64,000 nucleotides of DNA from Nitrospinaceae bacterium (GTDB taxonomy: Bacteria > Nitrospinota > Nitrospinia > Nitrospinales > Nitrospinaceae): the NCBI GenBank assembly GCA_965237905.1, contig OZ250172.1, positions 2,784,001-2,848,000 of the forward strand, written 5' to 3'. Under the pieces are notes generated by a model. It was given only the letters and a program-made list of their open reading frames with translations, ran no database searches and had not been told where the DNA came from. The translations under genes were made by a program, and so were the position numbers. Positions 30,403 to 42,132 of this stretch are shown here, in pieces (position 1 is the first letter of the stretch; every line of letters starts with the position of its first letter).

Positions 30403-31461
30403 TCACGGTTGGTTGAAGTAGACATCGTTTTTTTTGCAGTACTCGATCAGATTGTCCGGAGAGTATCCTTCATATCTCTTCTGGAGCCTTCGGATTGCCG
30501 ACGGATCCACTGTTTCGTTGCCGTGGGTGGCCTCACCCATTGGTCGGCCATACTTCCCCAGAAAGCAGTACTTGCCCTTCATCGTATTTCTTAATTCATC
30601 CATGTAAAAGGGGCGGTAATGATTGAGAAACTCTGCGTCGCATTCCAATTCCAGGCCGGCGGCTTTGTCCTTGAGCCAGTGCAATGCGATGTTGGAGAGC
30701 CCATCATTGTCGTAACCGCCGCCAATGTTGGAATGCACACCGGCAAACCAGCGTTGCTCGAAATTATCGATCGGTTGGGGAGCATCAGGGCTCCATAATG
30801 CCGGTTTGAAAGCTTTGCGTCGCTCGTCGATAGCCAGCGCGTGGTAGGCACCGATCACCGATGGCGACAGGCCGACTTGGTGAAAGGCATATCGCTTGTT
30901 GAGCCCGCTGAACAGACCGATCGGTATGCCAAGAGCGCCCACCGTGTCCCAGACCCCTAGAAATTGAATGGGGATTGGATGACTTTGATGCTCCTCACGG
31001 AATTGCCTGGCCCGCTGTTGGAACTCTTCCTCTTCTGTATCGTTTTCTACCTCTCGCTGGCTTCGGTAAAGCTCGTAGGCTTCCTTCATGAAAAAGATTT
31101 CATTTTTCGGCAGCAGACCGGCGGTGTCGATGAGGCCCACAAGGCTTCTCGCCGTATAAGCGCCACGGCTGAAACCAAACAGAAATACCTGGTCGCCAGG
31201 AATATAATTATTGGCCAAAAATTCATACGACTCGATGATGTTCTCCGATAGTCCAAGCCCGGTACCTCCACCCAGCCATTTGTCCGTACCCCTCCCCGTA
31301 CCAACGCCTATTTGATAGTACACGACTTGAACAGTGCCATCGTCGGCGAGGGGTTTGATGCCGCGGACCATTTTCACGACATTGGATGGCTTTCGCTTTC
31401 CGCGATCACTCTGGTCCGGTTTGTTCCAAGTGCCATCACAGCAAATAGCGATTCGTTTCAT
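30403..31461 (-). CDS. DUF2235 alpha/beta hydrolase (Tle1-like catalytic domain)
   Basis: CCDGTWN, SNV, GFSRGAYTAR, GVWDTV, HALAIDERR, WFAGVHSNIGGG. Confidence 0.9.
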   Translation of the reverse strand: MKRIAICCDGTWNKPDQSDRGKRKPSNVVKMVRGIKPLADDGTVQVVYYQIGVGTGRGTDKWLGGGTGLGLSENIIESYEFLANNYIPGDQVFLFGFSRGAYTARSLVGLIDTAGLLPKNEIFFMKEAYELYRSQREVENDTEEEEFQQRARQFREEHQSHPIPIQFLGVWDTVGALGIPIGLFSGLNKRYAFHQVGLSPSVIGAYHALAIDERRKAFKPALWSPDAPQPIDNFEQRWFAGVHSNIGGGYDNDGLSNIALHWLKDKAAGLELECDAEFLNHYRPFYMDELRNTMKGKYCFLGKYGRPMGEATHGNETVDPSAIRRLQKRYEGYSPDNLIEYCKKNDVYFNQP

Positions 31462-34995: not shown

Positions 34996-35241
34996 ATGAC
35001 TGAATCCAGTGGAAATGTCACCGTACGCCTGGCGGGAGAAACCCGCAAAAAACTCGACCATATAGCGACGGACCTCGACCGGTCCCGTAATTGGCTGATC
35101 AACGAGGCCATTGAAAACTATCTGGACGTGTACGAGTGGCAGGAACAAAAAATCCGCGAACGCCTCAAAAAATCCGAGAAAAAGGGAAAGTTCCGCACCG
35201 CGAAGCAGGTGAGCAAGGTCGTTGATTCCTTCAAGCCATGA
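34996..35241 (+). CDS. Ribbon-helix-helix (CopG-like) antitoxin
   Basis: VTVRL...LD.IA..LDRSRNWLINEAIENY; ATGA overlap with the toxin. Confidence 0.88.
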   Translation: MTESSGNVTVRLAGETRKKLDHIATDLDRSRNWLINEAIENYLDVYEWQEQKIRERLKKSEKKGKFRTAKQVSKVVDSFKP

Positions 35242-35525
35242 TGGACGTGGTCTGGCTTGAGGATGCGGTCAACGATCTGAAAATGATCGGTGATTACATC
35301 GCGGAAGAAAATAAAGAGGCCGCCTATCGGGTGTTGACCCAGATCCAGGCCGCGGCGGATTCCCTTGCGCGCCATCCGGAGATAGGGCGGCCCGGTCGGG
35401 TCGAAAAGACCCGCGAGCTGGTCATTTCCGGATTGCCCTACATCCTTCCCTACACCATCAAAAAGAACGAAGTCCGCATTTTGGCCGTACTGCACACCGC
35501 CCGCAAATGGCCGGGTGATTTCTAG
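35238..35525 (+). CDS. RelE/ParE family toxin
   Basis: W...A..DL..I.DYIA, HPEIGRPGR, RELVI..LPYI, ILAVLHTAR. Confidence 0.92.
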   Translation: MMDVVWLEDAVNDLKMIGDYIAEENKEAAYRVLTQIQAAADSLARHPEIGRPGRVEKTRELVISGLPYILPYTIKKNEVRILAVLHTARKWPGDF

Positions 35526-35612: not shown

Positions 35613-36620
35613 TTAAGCTATTCCTGAACGCAACAGGTCGTGGAGGTGGATCATGCCGTCGATCTGTTTGCCGTCGTCGGACACGGCGATACAGGTGATG
35701 GAATACTCCTCCATAATCTGTAAAGCCTTGGTGGCCATATCGTCCTTCTGCACCGTCTTGGGATTGGCGGACATCAGATCGGTCGCTTTGATCGTGCCGA
35801 TGTCGCGCTTCGATTCCATCAACCGGCGCAGGTCGCCGTCGGTGATGACGCCCTTCATCTGCCCCTTGCCATTCACCACCAGCGTGGTACCCAGCCGCTT
35901 GCGGCTCATTTCCGTCAGCACCGCGTAGATATCGGCCGATTCCGGCACCGTGGGAATGGTGTCGCCGGCGTGCATCACATCGGCCACCGTGACCAGCAGT
36001 TTGCGTCCCAGGCTCCCGCCGGGGTGGTTGAGGGCGAAATCGTCCTCCTTGAAGCCGCGTTTTTCGAGTAACCCCATGGCCAGCGTATCGCCCATCGCCA
36101 TCGTCGCCGTGGTGCTGGCGGTGGGGACCAGGTTCAGCGCGCACGCCTCTTCCTTGACAGCGATGTTCAGCACATAATGCGCGCGCTTGGCGAGGGTGGA
36201 GTCCGGGTTGCCCGTCATCGCCACCAGCGTGCATTTGCGGCGGTTGATGACCGGCAGAAGCCGCACCATTTCCTCCGTCTCGCCGCTGTTGGAGATGGCG
36301 AGGATGATATCCTCCTTGCCGATAATGCCGAGGTCGCCGTGGCTGGCCTCCGCCGCATGGACGAACACCGCCGACAGGCCGATGCTGGAGAAAGTCGCGG
36401 CGATTTTCTGTCCGACGAGGCCCGACTTGCCGATGCCCAGCACCACCAGGTGGCCGGGGCAGTCGTCCAGCAGGGACACCACATCGACAAAGGTCGAGTC
36501 GATGCGGTCCATCAGGTCGGCGACCGATTCGCTTTCGATGCGCAACACGCGCTTGCCCGCCGCGATGATTTTCTGTTGCAGTTCCGGCGCCACCGGCGAG
36601 GATTTCTTCAAGGGTTGCAT
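35613..36620 (-). CDS. kdsD: Arabinose-5-phosphate isomerase (KpsF/GutQ)
   Basis: GIGKSG, EASHGDLG, SNSGET, PTAST, HPGGSLG plus CBS pair. Confidence 0.95.
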   Translation of the reverse strand: MQPLKKSSPVAPELQQKIIAAGKRVLRIESESVADLMDRIDSTFVDVVSLLDDCPGHLVVLGIGKSGLVGQKIAATFSSIGLSAVFVHAAEASHGDLGIIGKEDIILAISNSGETEEMVRLLPVINRRKCTLVAMTGNPDSTLAKRAHYVLNIAVKEEACALNLVPTASTTATMAMGDTLAMGLLEKRGFKEDDFALNHPGGSLGRKLLVTVADVMHAGDTIPTVPESADIYAVLTEMSRKRLGTTLVVNGKGQMKGVITDGDLRRLMESKRDIGTIKATDLMSANPKTVQKDDMATKALQIMEEYSITCIAVSDDGKQIDGMIHLHDLLRSGIA

Positions 36621-36689: not shown

Positions 36690-36833
36690 CCCCCGTTTGT
36701 CACCCTGAGCCTGTCGAAGGGCGACAAACGGGGGATTTGGGTCACCCTGAGCCGATTAGCCTGTCCTAAGCTTGCCGAAGGAAAGGGAGACAAGAATGAA
36801 TTAACCACAGATAAACACAGATGGGCGCAGATA
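36690..36833. repeat. Cluster of nested micro-repeats (CCCTGAGC..GTCGAAGG family and AACCACAGAT/AACACAGAT decamers)
   Basis: Hairpin 36690-36734, nested copy 36741-36787, decamer array 36801-36833. Confidence 0.75.
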
Positions 36834-36932
36834 ATTGGATGGTCTCCCCATACCGAATCCGGTAAACTTTCAGAGTATTAGGAATGAAAGTCTCACTTTT
36901 TGGGGTGGATTAAAAGTATCATTTAGGTGTTA

Positions 36933-36962
36933 AGTGTTCGCTATCGACCCAAAGCGGACGTT
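36933..36962. repeat. Cassette-boundary palindrome A
   Basis: AGTGTTCGCTATCGACCCAAAGCGGACGTT. Confidence 0.65.
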
Positions 36963-37025
36963 GGTGGGTTGCGAGGAATTGAAAGATATGCAGAATAGTT
37001 CCCTAATAAATTATGTGGCCAAGAC

Positions 37026-37427
37026 ATGAAAAGGAATATGAAAGTAGGTGATAAAGCTTCTTTGAGTAAGGTATTTACTGAGGAGATGGTTATCCAATAT
37101 TCTAAAATTTCAACGGATACCAACCCTATTCACTTGGACGAGAGCTATGCTTCGTCTACTATTTTTGGAAAGCGAATCGTGCATGGAATGTTGGTTGCCA
37201 GTATGTTCTCTGCGCTTATCGGGGTTGAGCTTCCTGGAAAGGGTTCCATATATTTAGGACAAAGTTTGAGTTTTAAAGCACCCGTTTCAATCGGGGATCA
37301 AGTAACGGCGTCAGTCGAAATAGTTGGAATCCGGGATGACAAGCCAATCATCACATTGCGTACTATTTGCATTAACAATGAAAGACAGGTGTTAATCGAG
37401 GGTGAGGCTGTCGTAAAGTATATGTGA
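37026..37427 (+). CDS. MaoC/PhaJ-family (R)-specific enoyl-CoA hydratase
   Basis: S.DTNPIHLD, FGKRIVHGML, LPGKGSIY, FKAPV.IGD. Confidence 0.92.
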   Translation: MKRNMKVGDKASLSKVFTEEMVIQYSKISTDTNPIHLDESYASSTIFGKRIVHGMLVASMFSALIGVELPGKGSIYLGQSLSFKAPVSIGDQVTASVEIVGIRDDKPIITLRTICINNERQVLIEGEAVVKYM

Positions 37428-37471
37428 AACGACCGCTTTTGGCCGACTGCTGACGACCCAAAGCGGGCATT
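37428..37471. repeat. Cassette-boundary palindrome B (composite)
   Basis: AACGACCGCTTTTGGCCGACTGCTGAC-GACCCAAAGCGGGCATT, starting immediately after the TGA of the MaoC gene. Confidence 0.65.
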
Positions 37472-37486
37472 CTGGAAGAAGATCTA

Positions 37487-38638
37487 ATGACTCTGATATC
37501 TCAGTTTAAATACAAAAACACCGATGCGATTTTTATGTTTGCAGATGGCTTGATTTCATCCGACGCACCTGAAGAAGGGAACTTCATAATGCCAGGTGTA
37601 GGTCGCGTAGGACGCCCACAAACAATACACAAACTATATCTGCACTCCATGGAACAAAAACTAAATGTTCTGGGAAAGGACTTGGCGTACTCATATGCAG
37701 GATCGTACGACTTGGGTGCAAGGTTTGGTAACGATCTACATACGCTGTACACAGATCCTGAATTCAACTTCGAGAAGCTAGTGGAGTTTTGTGACTCATG
37801 GAGCGAGGCTCTTACTGACGAAGAGAAACATGAGGTCGCGCTCTTATGTACTTATCACGATGACGATGAGTACAGGACGTGGAACTATGAAATGAAGAAT
37901 GCTGATGGGTATAAGCATTACTCTCTGCTTCGTATTGAAGGTTCAGGGATTAAAAACTTCCAAAAAGTTGTGGACGAAGATAGCAACGTTATCGAAAACG
38001 ACGATCATGCTTTTGGTCATGCAATGAATTTGGTTAACAAGTTCTATCACGACGACCTTTTTGTACAGAGCAACTACAATCAATCGTTTGGAGGGTTTTA
38101 CGAGCTAGCCACATGCTCCCAAGAGGGAATAGAGAAAGTTACGGATATATTTGTCTCTACAATTCACATCGACGCACGACGCTTAGCCGATGGCTTCGCT
38201 ATTCCTATCACTTTTCTCAAACAGGATCATATCGATAACGTGACTGTATTACGCGATCTAAAGAAGGTTAACGAGTCGTTACCTGATGGCACTGACATGA
38301 GGGCCAGTGGACATATCTATTTACCGACAATCGATGCGTTTAAAGAAAAAGCGGTAGAAACTGCGCAGAAGATATTAAGCGAGGGTCAGTTTTATAACTC
38401 AGAGTTAATTGGTGACCTTAAAGCTAAACATACGCTGATTATGTTGGAGTTAGTCGATGAAACTCACGTACTCAAAATACCTCTCTACTATCGTAGAGCT
38501 AACCGCAATACGCCCATGGCTGTTACCAACGTAGATGGAGAGATTAGTATCTTTCTAGAAACTGAACTCTTACAAACGATCGAACGTAATATAGACACTC
38601 ATATTGATAGGGAAAACAAGTGTCTTCGTGATGCTTAA
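37487..38638 (+). CDS. Hypothetical protein, possibly Ntn-hydrolase/proteasome-like fold
   Basis: 383-aa AT-rich ORF; MTLI start with ADGLIS, QK, YAG and GSG pattern is reminiscent of Thr-nucleophile folds (weak). Confidence 0.65.
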   Translation: MTLISQFKYKNTDAIFMFADGLISSDAPEEGNFIMPGVGRVGRPQTIHKLYLHSMEQKLNVLGKDLAYSYAGSYDLGARFGNDLHTLYTDPEFNFEKLVEFCDSWSEALTDEEKHEVALLCTYHDDDEYRTWNYEMKNADGYKHYSLLRIEGSGIKNFQKVVDEDSNVIENDDHAFGHAMNLVNKFYHDDLFVQSNYNQSFGGFYELATCSQEGIEKVTDIFVSTIHIDARRLADGFAIPITFLKQDHIDNVTVLRDLKKVNESLPDGTDMRASGHIYLPTIDAFKEKAVETAQKILSEGQFYNSELIGDLKAKHTLIMLELVDETHVLKIPLYYRRANRNTPMAVTNVDGEISIFLETELLQTIERNIDTHIDRENKCLRDA

Positions 38639-38696
38639 TAGATTGGGCACCAATTCTTCCAAAAAAGTGGAGGTACCTTTCCACCCACGAGGTACT

Positions 38697-38725
38697 AACG
38701 GCTGCTTCTGGCCGAAAGCTGCCCT
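38697..38725. repeat. Cassette-boundary palindrome C
   Basis: AACGGCTGCTTCTGGCCGAAAGCTGCCCT. Confidence 0.65.
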
Positions 38726-38807
38726 CAGTGGTGCGAAATCCCCAAATATCAATTCAGTACGAATTTGCCCTATTATGGTATAAATGTGATTTGCAGGAGG
38801 TAAGCCA

Positions 38808-39095
38808 ATGGGTATTAAAGAAGAGTATCAGAAGGAACTGCAGGAGCAGTTGGACGAGTGGGGCAAGGAGATCGACAAGCTCAAGGCCGTGGCCGGTAAG
38901 GCAAAGACCGGTTTACAAGGCGAGTATTACAAGGAGGTCGAGGACCTTCGATGCAAGCAGCTGGCGGCTCAGAAGAAACTGCATGAGCTCAAAGAAGCCA
39001 GCGGAGACGCCTGGGAAGACCTCAAGGAAGGTGTCGAAGGGGCGTGGGATTCTCTTAGCACGGGGGTGAAAAAGGCCGCTTCCCGTTTCAAGTAG
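38808..39095 (+). CDS. Small coiled-coil stress-type protein
   Basis: AGGAGG RBS; QLDEW..EID.LKA, ASGDAWEDLKEG...AW. Confidence 0.8.
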   Translation: MGIKEEYQKELQEQLDEWGKEIDKLKAVAGKAKTGLQGEYYKEVEDLRCKQLAAQKKLHELKEASGDAWEDLKEGVEGAWDSLSTGVKKAASRFK

Positions 39096-39219
39096 CCGGC
39101 CCTCTAGCGAGGGAGGCAGCTGGCTTACCGTTGACTGCAAGCGATGTATCTTGGGGCGCAATTGAAAGACAGGCCCGGGCGGAGTACCTCCGCTGGTTAC
39201 ATGAACTCCACAACCCAAA

Positions 39220-39415
39220 TTAACCACAGATGAACACAGATAAACACCGATGAACCCAAAGGTTGTTGCCTTGAACCAAAACCCCACCCCACCTATATCC
39301 TCCCCTCTGTAAGGGGAGGATCATTAAGCCCTTATCCGTGTCCATCTGTGTTCATCTGTGGTTAAACCCTTTGTGTTCCCTTCGACCTTGCTCAGGGCAG
39401 GCACCTGTGGTTAAA
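39220..39415. repeat. MITE-like inverted decamer arrays with nested micro-repeats
   Basis: TTAACCACAGATGAACACAGAT (39220-39255) inverted at 39333-39365; a second right end is interrupted by a 23-bp element at 39379-39401. Confidence 0.75.
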
Positions 39416-39426
39416 TCCTTCCTGTT

Positions 39427-42132
39427 ATGGCTAAGAAACCGACACTTTATCTGATTGACGGGTCGTCGTATATCTTCCGGGCGTTTTACGGCATCCGGCA
39501 GTTCCTGTCCAATTCCAAAGGGCTCCCCACCAACGCGCTGTACGGTTTCACCACCATGCTCTCCAAGGTGGTGCGCGACGAGCAACCGGACTACCTGGCC
39601 GTGGTGTTCGACTCCAAAGCCAAAACCTTCCGCCACGAGATGTATTCCGACTACAAGGCCAACCGCGACACCCCGCCGGAAGAACTCGCCGAACAGTTCC
39701 CCTATTTCGAACCGTTGGTGGAGGCGTTCAATATCGTCAGCCTGCGGCAGGACGGGTTCGAGGCCGACGACATCATCGGTACCCTCGCGAAGATGGGCGA
39801 GCAGGCGAAGATGGCAGTGACCATCGTTTCCGGCGACAAGGACATGATGCAGTTGATCTCCCCGCACGTCCACATGCTCGACACGATGAAGGACAAACGC
39901 TTCGAGAAAGCGGAGGTGATCGACAAGTTCGGCGTGCCGCCGGAGAAGGTGATCGAGGTGATGGGCCTGATGGGCGACTCCAGCGACCACATCCCCGGCG
40001 TGAAGGGGGTGGGACCGAAAACGGCGACGGAGCTGATCCAGAAATACGGCTCCATTGAAAAGCTGTATAAGAATATAGAAGACATCGACAAGCAGAAGCT
40101 GAAGGACAAACTGGAGACGGACAAGGAGAACGCCCTGCTCAGCCGCCAACTGGTGACCATCGATACCGAAATGAAACTCGACTGTAAAGTCGAAGACCTC
40201 AAGATGCGCGAACCCGACACCGACAAACTGCGCTCGATGTTTACTGAGCTTGGATTTAAGTCGCTCCTTGAAAATTTACCAGCGGGCGAGGGCACCGCCG
40301 GTGTGCCACCGGTATCAGATTTTTCCAAGATAGAGTCTAATTATCAAACCATATTAGATGAGCAATCGTTGGAGTCGTTATTAAAATTCCTTAAAAAATC
40401 TAAAAAATTCGCGCTCGACTTGGAAACGACGAGCAAGCATCCGACCCGCGCGGAGATGGTGGGCATCTCGTTTTCGTGGGCAGAGGGCGAGGCGTGCTAC
40501 ATCCCGGTGAGCCACCGTTACCTGGGCGTGCCGGAGCAGTTGGACAAGCAGAAGGTGATTGAAGCCCTAAAACCTCTTCTGCAAGATGGAAAACTTAAAA
40601 AGTTCGGACACAACATAAAGTACGATCTCATCGTGCTCGCCAACGAGGGTGTGGCGCTTAAGGGCGTCGCGTTCGATTCCATGCTGGCGTCGTATGTGCT
40701 GGACCCGTCGAAGCGGCAACACGGCCTCGACGATCTGGCAATGGAGTTGCTGGGGCATCAGAACATCACTTTTAAAGACGTGGCGGGGAAGGGGGCCAAG
40801 CAGATCGGCTTCGACGAGGTGGCCATCGACGTGGCGGCCGAGTACGCGGCGGAGGACAGCGACATCACCTTCCGTTTGACGCATGCGTTGCGGCCGCGCC
40901 TCAGGGACGAGACTTTAAAATTGTATGAAGAGCTGGAGTTGCCGCTGATCGATGTGCTGGCGGATATGGAGATGACCGGCGTGCGGGTTGACCGCGAGCA
41001 TCTCAAAAAAATGTCGAGTAAGTTGACCAAGGCCTTAAAGAAACATGAGGACGAAATTTATGCGATGGCGGGGGAGCCGTTCAATATCAACTCGCCGAAG
41101 CAGTTGGGAGTGATCCTGTTCGAGAAGATGGGATTGACGGCGAAGAAAAAAACCAAGACCGGGTTCTCGACCGACATGAGCGTGATGGAGGAGTTGGCGG
41201 ACGAGCACGAACTGCCGGCGATGATCGTTAACTTCCGCCAGTTGTCAAAATTGAAGTCGACTTACATTGACGCACTGCCGCTGGAGATCAATCAGAAGAC
41301 CGGGCGGGTTCATACGTCGTACAACCAGACGGTCGCCGCGACGGGACGGTTGAGCAGTAGCGATCCAAACTTGCAGAATATTCCGATCCGCTCCGACCTC
41401 GGCAAGGAAATCCGTCAGGCGTTTGTCGCGGATAAAGACGGCTGGTTGTTGTCGGCGGACTATTCGCAGATCGAGTTGCGTATTCTCGCGCATTTGTCGG
41501 GCGATCCGGCATTGATCCAGGCGTTCAAGAAGGGGGAGGACATTCACACACGCACGGCGGCGGAGATATTCGGTCAGCCGTTGGACGGGGTGGACGAGGA
41601 CGGGCGGCGCATGGCCAAGGCGGTGAACTTCGGCATCGTGTACGGGTTGAGTGCATTTGGATTATCGCGGCAGTTAAAGATAAGTCCGGGTGAGGCGAAG
41701 GCATTCATCGACCAGTATTTCGATCTGTACAAGAACGTGAAGACCTTCATGGAGAGCACCATCGAAGAAGCGCGGCAGTGCGGGTACACCATGACGATGA
41801 TGAACCGGCGGCGCTACCTGCCTGACCTGCACAGCAAGAACCGGCAGGTGCGGGAGTCGACGGAGCGGGTGGCGATCAATTCGCCGGTGCAGGGCAGTGC
41901 GGCGGACATGATCAAGCTGGCGATGATCCGTTTGCATCACAAGCTGGCGCAGTTGAAGCTGAAGTCGAAGATGATCATGCAGGTGCACGACGAGTTGGTG
42001 TTCGAGTGTCCGGCGAAAGAGAAGAAGGACGTCGAAGCGCTGGTCAAAAAAGAAATGGAAGGCGTGTGGCCGATGCAGGTTCCGGTGGTGGTGCATCTGA
42101 ACTGGGGCAAGAACTGGAACGAGGCGCATTAA
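39427..42132 (+). CDS. polA: DNA polymerase I
   Basis: LIDGSS, EADD, DLETT, TGRLSS, DYSQIELR, KAVNFG, QVHDEL. Confidence 0.99.
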   Translation: MAKKPTLYLIDGSSYIFRAFYGIRQFLSNSKGLPTNALYGFTTMLSKVVRDEQPDYLAVVFDSKAKTFRHEMYSDYKANRDTPPEELAEQFPYFEPLVEAFNIVSLRQDGFEADDIIGTLAKMGEQAKMAVTIVSGDKDMMQLISPHVHMLDTMKDKRFEKAEVIDKFGVPPEKVIEVMGLMGDSSDHIPGVKGVGPKTATELIQKYGSIEKLYKNIEDIDKQKLKDKLETDKENALLSRQLVTIDTEMKLDCKVEDLKMREPDTDKLRSMFTELGFKSLLENLPAGEGTAGVPPVSDFSKIESNYQTILDEQSLESLLKFLKKSKKFALDLETTSKHPTRAEMVGISFSWAEGEACYIPVSHRYLGVPEQLDKQKVIEALKPLLQDGKLKKFGHNIKYDLIVLANEGVALKGVAFDSMLASYVLDPSKRQHGLDDLAMELLGHQNITFKDVAGKGAKQIGFDEVAIDVAAEYAAEDSDITFRLTHALRPRLRDETLKLYEELELPLIDVLADMEMTGVRVDREHLKKMSSKLTKALKKHEDEIYAMAGEPFNINSPKQLGVILFEKMGLTAKKKTKTGFSTDMSVMEELADEHELPAMIVNFRQLSKLKSTYIDALPLEINQKTGRVHTSYNQTVAATGRLSSSDPNLQNIPIRSDLGKEIRQAFVADKDGWLLSADYSQIELRILAHLSGDPALIQAFKKGEDIHTRTAAEIFGQPLDGVDEDGRRMAKAVNFGIVYGLSAFGLSRQLKISPGEAKAFIDQYFDLYKNVKTFMESTIEEARQCGYTMTMMNRRRYLPDLHSKNRQVRESTERVAINSPVQGSAADMIKLAMIRLHHKLAQLKLKSKMIMQVHDELVFECPAKEKKDVEALVKKEMEGVWPMQVPVVVHLNWGKNWNEAH

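Follow-up and report, generated by a model that had tools for sequence, protein, structure and literature searches.

The attC sites of integrons consist of paired RYYYAAC and GTTRRRY boxes, and tyrosine-recombinase sites have an established 12-6-12 layout. The FimB/FimE-type invertases, which measure about 200 aa, keep the full catalytic set and lack a core-binding domain, act at inverted sites in a promoter switch. A further set of inverted repeats is annotated in the Z region of phage P2, where Nilsson, Karlsson and Haggard-Ljungquist in 2004 reportedly saw spontaneous inversion between the repeats in vivo; to our knowledge, no enzyme was assigned to them at that time. Their paper (doi 10.1093/molbev/msg223) is cited with one-sentence mentions in the accessible text of PMC13748975 and PMC9122126, the accessible portions of PMC13100340, PMC6379469 and PMC3448106 hold nothing on the P2 Z repeats, and in the literature searched we found no explanation for the replacement of accessory and anti-phage genes in the P2 Z slot and similar hotspots. 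In Acinetobacter plasmids, the pdif (xrs) modules are recombined by XerC/XerD at sites made of two arms around a 6-bp central region; recombination is limited to sites whose central regions are closely related, and a route via cointegrate formation and resolution has been proposed for the exchange (PMC11705084, in the part of the text available).

The window (the whole 64,000-nucleotide stretch analysed here, positions 2784001-2848000 of C1 in the genome that we call G000, probably one of the Nitrospinota) contains a chromosomal slot holding two cassettes of a pdif-like site-specific exchange system, which shares its site with the P2 Z repeats and which we class with neither integrons nor Xer modules. 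Cassette exchange very probably takes place at these sites, and we consider it likely, with less assurance, that the full model applies, namely a cassette slot whose contents are exchanged by a visiting small recombinase acting as the cognate enzyme. An earlier note on this DNA had raised the possibility of an undescribed gene-capture system: as far as we searched, neither the cognate recombinase nor the spread across phyla is found in print, but the site family itself is already contained in the annotated P2 Z repeats. The literature searched, with subscription papers and supplements mostly beyond reach, describes neither the site consensus nor the recombinase family.

Four 30-bp dyads (12-6-12) lie in the window, each with a strong 12-bp arm on its cargo side, a 6-bp spacer and a weak arm (Table 1). 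Three sites of about 28 bp, all in one orientation, had been described before; their coordinates (36933, 37428 and 38697) are correct, but the number is four, site B (37428-37471) being two, the unit measures 30 bp, and their orientation alternates, with two spacer classes and the strong arm toward the cargo. That site B starts at the next base after the gene 1 stop (37427) and is double was read correctly, B1 and B2 being separated by an 8-bp linker. Read outward from the cargo, all four sites show AAYGTCCGCTTT followed by GGGTCG (alpha) or TGGCCG (beta), the spacer CGACCC of site A being GGGTCG in that reading. The boundary arms all face cargo with an alpha or a beta spacer, and therefore each gene lies between two inverted, unlike sites; this is a pdif-like arrangement, and the integron-like model with one site per cassette, as first put forward, is not supported. 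In direct orientation, A pairs with B2 at a spacing of 509 bp and B1 with C at 1269 bp. In a wider census, 140 of 153 sites carry an alpha or beta spacer. The contrast between strong and weak arms is partly built in, because the matrix scores one arm only.

Table 1. Sites, cassettes, genes and flanking anchors in the window
Feature	Positions	Strand	Description	Score
kdsD-like gene	35613..36620	-	left anchor of the variable interval; Pfam SIS+CBS	
Site A, alpha type	36933..36962		weak arm 36933-36944, spacer CGACCC 36945-36950, strong arm 36951-36962 toward gene 1	29.3 bits
Cassette 1	36945..37445	+	501 bp, both spacers included	
MaoC-like dehydratase gene (gene 1)	37026..37427	+	133 aa; PF01575	E 7e-22
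Site B1, beta type	37428..37445		strong arm 37428-37439, spacer TGGCCG 37440-37445	25.0 bits
Linker in site B	37446..37453		8 bp; two collapsed weak arms	
Site B2, alpha type	37454..37471		spacer CGACCC 37454-37459, strong arm 37460-37471	25.9 bits
Gene 2	37487..38638	+	383 aa; within cassette 2 (37454-38714)	
Site C, beta type	38697..38726		strong arm 38697-38708, spacer TGGCCG 38709-38714, weak arm 38715-38726	
95-aa gene	38808..39095	+	outside the cassettes; adjoins polA in several congeners; no Pfam family	
polA	39427..42132	+	right anchor; Pfam DNA polymerase A	

An Rfam scan of the sites returned nothing significant. Compared with shuffled sequences, the single sites A and C fold no better (z -0.5 to -1.4), and the double site B folds at z about -3. 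Only 17 of the 95 non-consensus arm bases are matched by a change in the opposite arm, and with so little arm compensation a duplex protein-binding site fits better than a hairpin.

The two cargo genes form, as was noted from the start, a co-oriented AT-rich pair, both on the plus strand and with GC contents of 0.41 and 0.42, against 0.54-0.64 in the GC-rich kdsD and polA flanks. Homologues of the MaoC protein occur in 4 of 120 genomes of the phylum (E<=1e-35). The 383-aa product of gene 2 belongs to no family in Pfam, NCBIfam or PADLOC and has no PDB match; it is present in 1 of the 120 genomes, has three metagenomic homologues (47-58%) and falls in unnamed clusters of the Atlas, with a weak proteasome/Ntn lead that concerns 14% of one cluster's members. 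A single ORF was present in 37 of the 52 site-bounded intervals counted (ORFs called automatically; duplicates L062, L160, L116, L121 and L139 dropped), and 39 of the 52 have unlike spacers. Alpha stands at the gene 5' end in 29 of these 39, and in 22 of the 27 that hold a single ORF; the polarity is incomplete, 10 of the 39 being reversed. The other 13 have like spacers at both ends (11 beta/beta, 2 alpha/alpha). A count by orientation of the nearest ORF (alpha, 34 at the 5' and 19 at the 3' end; beta, 45 and 14) was noisy and is superseded by the interval count.

An 18-bp half-site matrix trained on G000 gave 26 matches of at least 19 bits in that genome, as against 2 and 1 in two shuffles, an excess that is partly circular because the matrix was trained on G000 itself. 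Within 4 kb of another match lie 19 of the 26, and 22 fall outside ORFs of at least 120 aa, compared with 12 of 60 random positions. Beyond G000, a fixed 18-mer with one mismatch is present in 57 of 120 genomes of the phylum (reversed control, 0), a beta 18-mer in 16 of 61 Mariprofundaceae genomes (four single matches for the control), the exact 30-mer at 20 loci in named records of Zetaproteobacteria, Gammaproteobacteria, Nitrospinaceae and Rhodothermales, and double sites, with linkers of about 20 bp, at 21 metagenome loci. A degenerate 30-mer had no match in viral contigs, and 8 of the 32 viral half-site loci are matches within one phage coding gene. In the Mariprofundaceae, single and doublet palindromes lie directly 3' of housekeeping genes.

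Comparison between genomes shows where the sequences part. The MaoC cassette is found in the congeneric genome G002 at an unrelated locus, with 458 of 506 aligned columns identical; identity with G000 extends from the alpha spacer through the beta spacer, and the outer arms differ. These spacer breakpoints, along with the unpaired attC heptamers, bear out the proposal of single-gene cassettes bounded by non-attC sites of tyrosine-recombinase type. As for flanks in homologues, the spacers are shared by MaoC in G002, and two more distant MaoC homologues (71% and 75%) have no sites. Contigs of four studies cover the MaoC cassette and leave gene 2 almost uncovered; one contig, from run X3, begins to match at 36945. 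Loose ends were seen at 36962, 37470 and 38702. Joints from 36963/36966 to 38699 in run X5 were rejected as repeat artefacts, one side having only 21 bases. In four runs, represented by contigs only, no recombination, circle or inversion was observed.

The slot tells the complementary part. At the polA-side locus, G001 and G008 keep the spacer and weak arm of site C, and the cargo-side DNA differs. The kdsD-polA interval of G011 and G014 lacks a cargo gene, and that of G004 and G013 carries different genes and no sites. At this locus G001 has a beta site only and G004, G013 and G017 have none at 9 bits, so other processes too fill the kdsD-polA hotspot. Other G000 slots recur at orthologous loci of congeners, with different cargo where it is readable. 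Judged by comparison between loci, cassettes and the recombinase unit described below change neighbours at the spacers, and the slots hold on to spacer and weak arm as their cargo changes.

In the annotated P2 Z/fun inverted repeats, the ends that face the cargo belong to the same site family, scoring 15.7-19.7 bits on the G000 matrix. In fun(Z) of P2 itself the left site reaches 19.7 bits, and the right one, below 9 bits, was aligned by eye; the inner ends of the P2-EC31 repeats score 15.8 and 16.9 bits. Z regions of P2-like coliphages are recorded in GenBank under AJ512677 and AJ512679-82. Of the 6 records compared for the left spacer, 4 have GTGCCA and the others GTACCA or GTGCTA, and the right spacer is TCGCTC in 4 records and TGGCTC in P2-EC31; spacers and outer arms remain with the replicon that hosts them. 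The P2 Z region and the window are thus alike in having inverted sites with two different spacers and, between them, unrelated, AT-rich and variable cargo. However, they differ in several respects: (i) the P2 Z repeats are annotated at 91-113 bp, with the spacers GTGCCA/TCGCTC, and the window shares with them a core of about 30 bp only; (ii) P2 Z is one slot in an enterobacterial phage, whereas the window has a chromosomal slot in a different phylum, with tandem cassettes; (iii) the P2-like prophage context (a full repeat between G and FI) is absent from the window, where the flanks are kdsD and polA.

A candidate enzyme emerged when 34 recombinase loci were scanned for sites: in G122, a short tyrosine recombinase lies at contig ends in two copies, and a site follows each of them. 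Members of this family are 198-219 aa long, and R59, K87, H156, R159, H182 and Y191, the R-K-H-R-H-Y catalytic set of tyrosine recombinases, are shared by no fewer than 33 of the 34 sequences. The core-binding domain, which simple tyrosine recombinases usually carry (PMC8138268, in the portion available), is missing, the alignment to XerD/XerA starting at residue 35-43 of 208, and an enzyme built in this way may need a partner. The family passes no NCBIfam cut-off. It is found on 312 plasmids, in 24 of 251 genomes of the phylum of G122 and in 2 of 120 of the window's phylum; its enterobacterial unit of about 690 bp matches 888 of 5426 E. coli genomes, and in a phage collection the recombinase has matches in 2 records only. 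In G000 it was not found, the best match having 26% identity; a 202-aa recombinase at 2658094 of that genome, 26% identical to the family and with no adjacent site, was set aside. The early supposition that the recombinase lies elsewhere thus agrees with what we found, the small recombinase being neither near the sites nor found anywhere in G000.

The association with sites was counted at 41 recombinase loci (L224, L248, L119 and L217 were left out as belonging to the discovery, L215 as a duplicate, and L219 and L221-L223 as distant). With the matrix trained on G000 only, a site of at least 9 bits, its weak arm toward the gene, lies 35-80 bp past the stop at 21 of the 41 loci, as against 0 of 78 distal windows; 17 remain at 12 bits and 10 at 17 bits, and 20 loci have no downstream site at 9 bits. 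At loci with at least 68% identity the downstream site is present in 14 of 18. Upstream, a site occurs at 13 of 39 loci, compared with 3 of 39 in the control. The weak arms face the recombinase gene, which thus sits in the linker position and not in that of the cargo. In G053 the gene has an alpha site upstream and a beta site downstream, and site A of the window is the best match in G000 to that upstream site (29 of 32 bases). In a 34-protein tree, the spacer on the downstream side (TGGCCG, TGGCAC, GGGCCR or TGGCCC) appears to track the clades, a pattern in which kin are not independent. The enterobacterial copies carry TCGCTC and GTGCCA, which is the P2 Z spacer pair; between three E. coli loci and a plasmid copy, identity of the 690-bp unit runs from the upstream spacer into the downstream site, and none of these three loci is a P2 Z slot. 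From all this we infer that the small recombinase is the cognate enzyme of the sites. The small family has a downstream site at about half of its loci, and only the 2 genomes of the window's phylum mentioned above encode it, against the 57 with sites, a disparity that counts against the model.

The system so outlined may be set beside those already described. Like pdif modules, whose accessory genes, in the accessible text of PMC11705084, are flanked by two sites that are oppositely oriented or diverge in their central regions, the intervals seen here mostly have unlike sites (39 of 52); in contrast to them, (i) our sites have neither the XerC/XerD arm sequence nor an ATAA-TTAT core, and their 12-bp arms are near-palindromic; (ii) the candidate enzyme is a dedicated recombinase of about 205 aa, itself a module; (iii) the sites occur on chromosomes, prophages and plasmids of several phyla. 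With integrons and CALINs (PMC4889954, in the part available) they share mostly single-gene cassettes, a biased orientation, tandem arrays and arrays remote from any enzyme. Unlike integrons, the sites have no attC boxes and show no sign of a structured single-strand substrate, each cassette has two unlike sites, and the small recombinase scores 28.5 bits on the IntI model, whose cut-off is 265. In G177, an array of direct single sites adjoins the small recombinase. The resemblance to FimB/FimE lies in a length of about 200 aa, the intact catalytic set, the missing core-binding domain and the inverted sites; nevertheless, the small recombinase reaches only 21.4 bits on NF007371 (cut-off 222), and its sites bound exchangeable cargo.

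The model that we favour would work as follows. Cargo modules would lie between strong arms, usually with alpha at the gene 5' end and beta at the 3' end, and a complementary module between weak arms would take one of two forms, a short linker like that of site B or a unit of about 690 bp with a 198-219-aa recombinase made of the catalytic domain only; the 8-bp linker of site B would accordingly occupy the position that is filled elsewhere by the recombinase module. Recombination would join like spacers only. By analogy with pdif, a donor with an alpha and a beta site would enter through one spacer, and resolution at the other would then exchange the cargo that the slot carries; a circle of cassette plus linker, entering by a single crossover, would add a second cassette and give the order A-gene1-B-gene2-C. 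The recombinase would have arrived in trans and then left. The predicted excision circles measure 509 bp for A x B2 and 1269 bp for B1 x C.

Could the same cassettes be moved by something else? It may be that the cassette system is as we describe it and that another enzyme does the work, be it the host's own XerC/D aided by a cofactor or a protein that has escaped recognition, the small recombinase being a frequent passenger between weak arms. The absence of that recombinase from G000 and the likeness of the layout to pdif modules speak for this reading, as does the site-rich genome G120 (26 matches; completeness not given), where the only tyrosine recombinases are two of XerC/D size. We nonetheless judge it unlikely, given that spacer differences go along with the clades of the small recombinase. 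As regards Xer in particular, the candidate dif of G000 (about 124575-124602, near the GC-skew maximum), located with a dif motif, scores -3 bits on the site matrix. Moreover, the sites are patchy within one family (16 of 61), whereas XerC/D is near-universal (PMC8138268, in the accessible text). A survey of other enzymes in G000 gave 5 matches to PF00589 and one large serine recombinase, none of them with a 17-bit site within 10 kb, and a small serine recombinase (PF00239) was rejected as the enzyme, being absent from 4 of the 5 site-rich genomes. It is quite improbable that the 18-bp inverted ends are the terminal repeats of non-autonomous transposons or MITEs mobilised by a DDE or IS110-type transposase with a preference for palindromic targets. 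Each cassette does have such ends, and some G000 slots have longer outer ends that resemble terminal repeats (GTAGTGTCTCAG) together with duplications of about 10 bp; yet no target duplication is present at sites A, B and C, and both slot and cassette keep spacers. When 880 ORFs from 70 site-bearing loci were clustered, no recombinase or transposase family recurred beside the sites, and the long outer ends recur at identical loci in congeners whose cargo differs. That the long 'T' ends are recently moved transposons found no support: only the genus has them (6 of 120 genomes), and they occupy orthologous loci. We also rejected a reading in which contig-end sites would be the sign of a multi-copy transposase, since the sequences inside them are unlike and a match was obtained for a single pair only.

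Two further readings start from the palindromic form of the sites. REP- or BIME-like single-strand hairpins could have been spread by an HUH enzyme (RAYT or IS91-like), the genes between them having come in by secondary recombination; the palindromes found singly and as doublets 3' of Mariprofundaceae housekeeping genes and the fold of double site B fit this, but single sites A and C fold like their shuffles, the arms show little compensation, and the breakpoints are at the spacer rather than outside the hairpin. RAYT (PF01797) is missing from all 5 site-rich genomes and has matches in 6 of 14 control genomes, and a REP origin is very improbable. The IS91/ISCR Y2 transposase PF04986 has no match in G000, nor in any control. 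It is scarcely credible that the locus is a CALIN, a degenerate array of attC sites on which an integron integrase acts. A double site with four boxes and outer AAY...RTT ends would suit such an array, one GTTRRRY overlaps site A (36929), and attC-like remnants occur at a few cassette ends elsewhere; against this, site A has no RYYYAAC partner, neither heptamer is present at B or C, and single 30-bp sites serve as boundaries. The integron integrase TIGR02249 is above cut-off in 0 of 5 genomes, and likewise in 0 of 14 control genomes, so that this search has no positive control. The early view that the sites are not attC is upheld by the lack of paired heptamers; the candidate dif score sets them apart from dif as well, and nothing supports their being REP elements.

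We lean slightly towards a broader view, in which this would be a third general gene-cassette system beside integrons and pdif: a recombinase unit the size of an insertion sequence would exchange cassettes at two unlike 30-bp sites. In several phyla it would refill fixed slots on plasmids and chromosomes and in prophages, the P2 Z defence hotspot and filamentous-phage cargo among them, before leaving again. If so, this marine lineage, Zetaproteobacteria, Pseudomonas and E. coli would have their accessory gene pools linked by one nearly identical site. Cassette finders based on attC or dif would not be expected to detect such arrays. Cassette exchange would also gain a compact tool, in the shape of a very small recombinase whose spacers are unlike by nature, and a named candidate enzyme of about 205 aa, together with predicted spacer rules, makes the question of slot exchange testable. 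The window offers a clean case at the level of the cassette, far from the enterobacteria. Between site C and polA it also contains REP-like repeats and the 95-aa gene.

Cassettes bounded by the 30-bp sites are found on both viral and chromosomal sequences. On the viral contigs L119/L217 and L115, which by gene content we take to resemble Pseudomonas filamentous prophages, the cargo is bounded by sites, and one of them carries a gene for the small tyrosine recombinase that is our candidate enzyme. In the source genome (G000), a cluster of sites terminates an island whose CBASS-like operon, read by eye, comprises patatin, nucleotidyltransferase and E2-like genes. In two genomes, G120 and G127 (loci L181-L200), many contigs end 16-340 bp inward of the strong, cargo-facing arm, with unlike inner sequences, and one cassette end is common to two G127 contigs that differ in their outer arms; this pattern may arise because cassettes differ among members of the population.

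Two further features may bear on where slots and cargo come from. Many G000 slots have extended outer ends that terminate in the terminal-repeat-like GTAGTGTCTCAGTT, beyond which some show duplications of about 10 bp (CCGGTCAAAG); these extensions are restricted to the genus and may be a trace of the initial placement of the slots on the chromosome. In addition, attC-like remnants (GTCTAAC, GTTAGGC) adjoin some sites, and integron cassettes may therefore be the source of some of the cargo. Beside the small recombinase gene in L264 (G177:C17), single alpha sites (spacer GGGTCG) form an array in direct orientation, a layout that is integron-like and unlike the double site of the window.

The sites may themselves be invaded: at several loci a recurring TCAACCGGTCGATGCAACAC-like repeat, presumably IS30-like, splits the spacer, which suggests an insertion sequence with these sites as its target.

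Features associated with the sites and with the window slot
Feature	Position	Detail
Island	G000:C1 2654451-2671035	large serine recombinase, 202-aa tyrosine recombinase, CBASS-like operon
Slots with extended outer ends	G000:C1 242021-248260, 559209-561994, 662959-663011, 848075-848126, 1360314-1360366	
attC-like remnants	L183; G000:C1 1361148, 2670048	
Spacer-interrupting repeat	L040:8471, L064:10404, L191:66, L192:62, L262:13962, L268:12121	
383-aa protein gene	window 37487-38638	
RHH-ParE toxin-antitoxin pair	window 34996-35525	close to slot
Tle1-like phospholipase-domain gene	window 30403-31461	close to slot
Further intergenic repeats, kdsD-polA	window 36690-36734, 36803-36834, 39212-39376	

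Within the window slot, the 383-aa cargo protein starts (MTLI...ADGLIS) in a way that resembles Ntn-hydrolase/proteasome-type N-termini; the Atlas protein clusters offer no more than a weak lead. The flanking kdsD was detected in only 4 of 10 congeners (E<=1e-80). The other repeats between kdsD and polA are a strong hairpin together with repeats of the AACCACAGAT type, and the family names we presume for them are CGTC-type REP and GxxExxY-linked repeat; those of the AACCACAGAT type have numerous copies in congeners.
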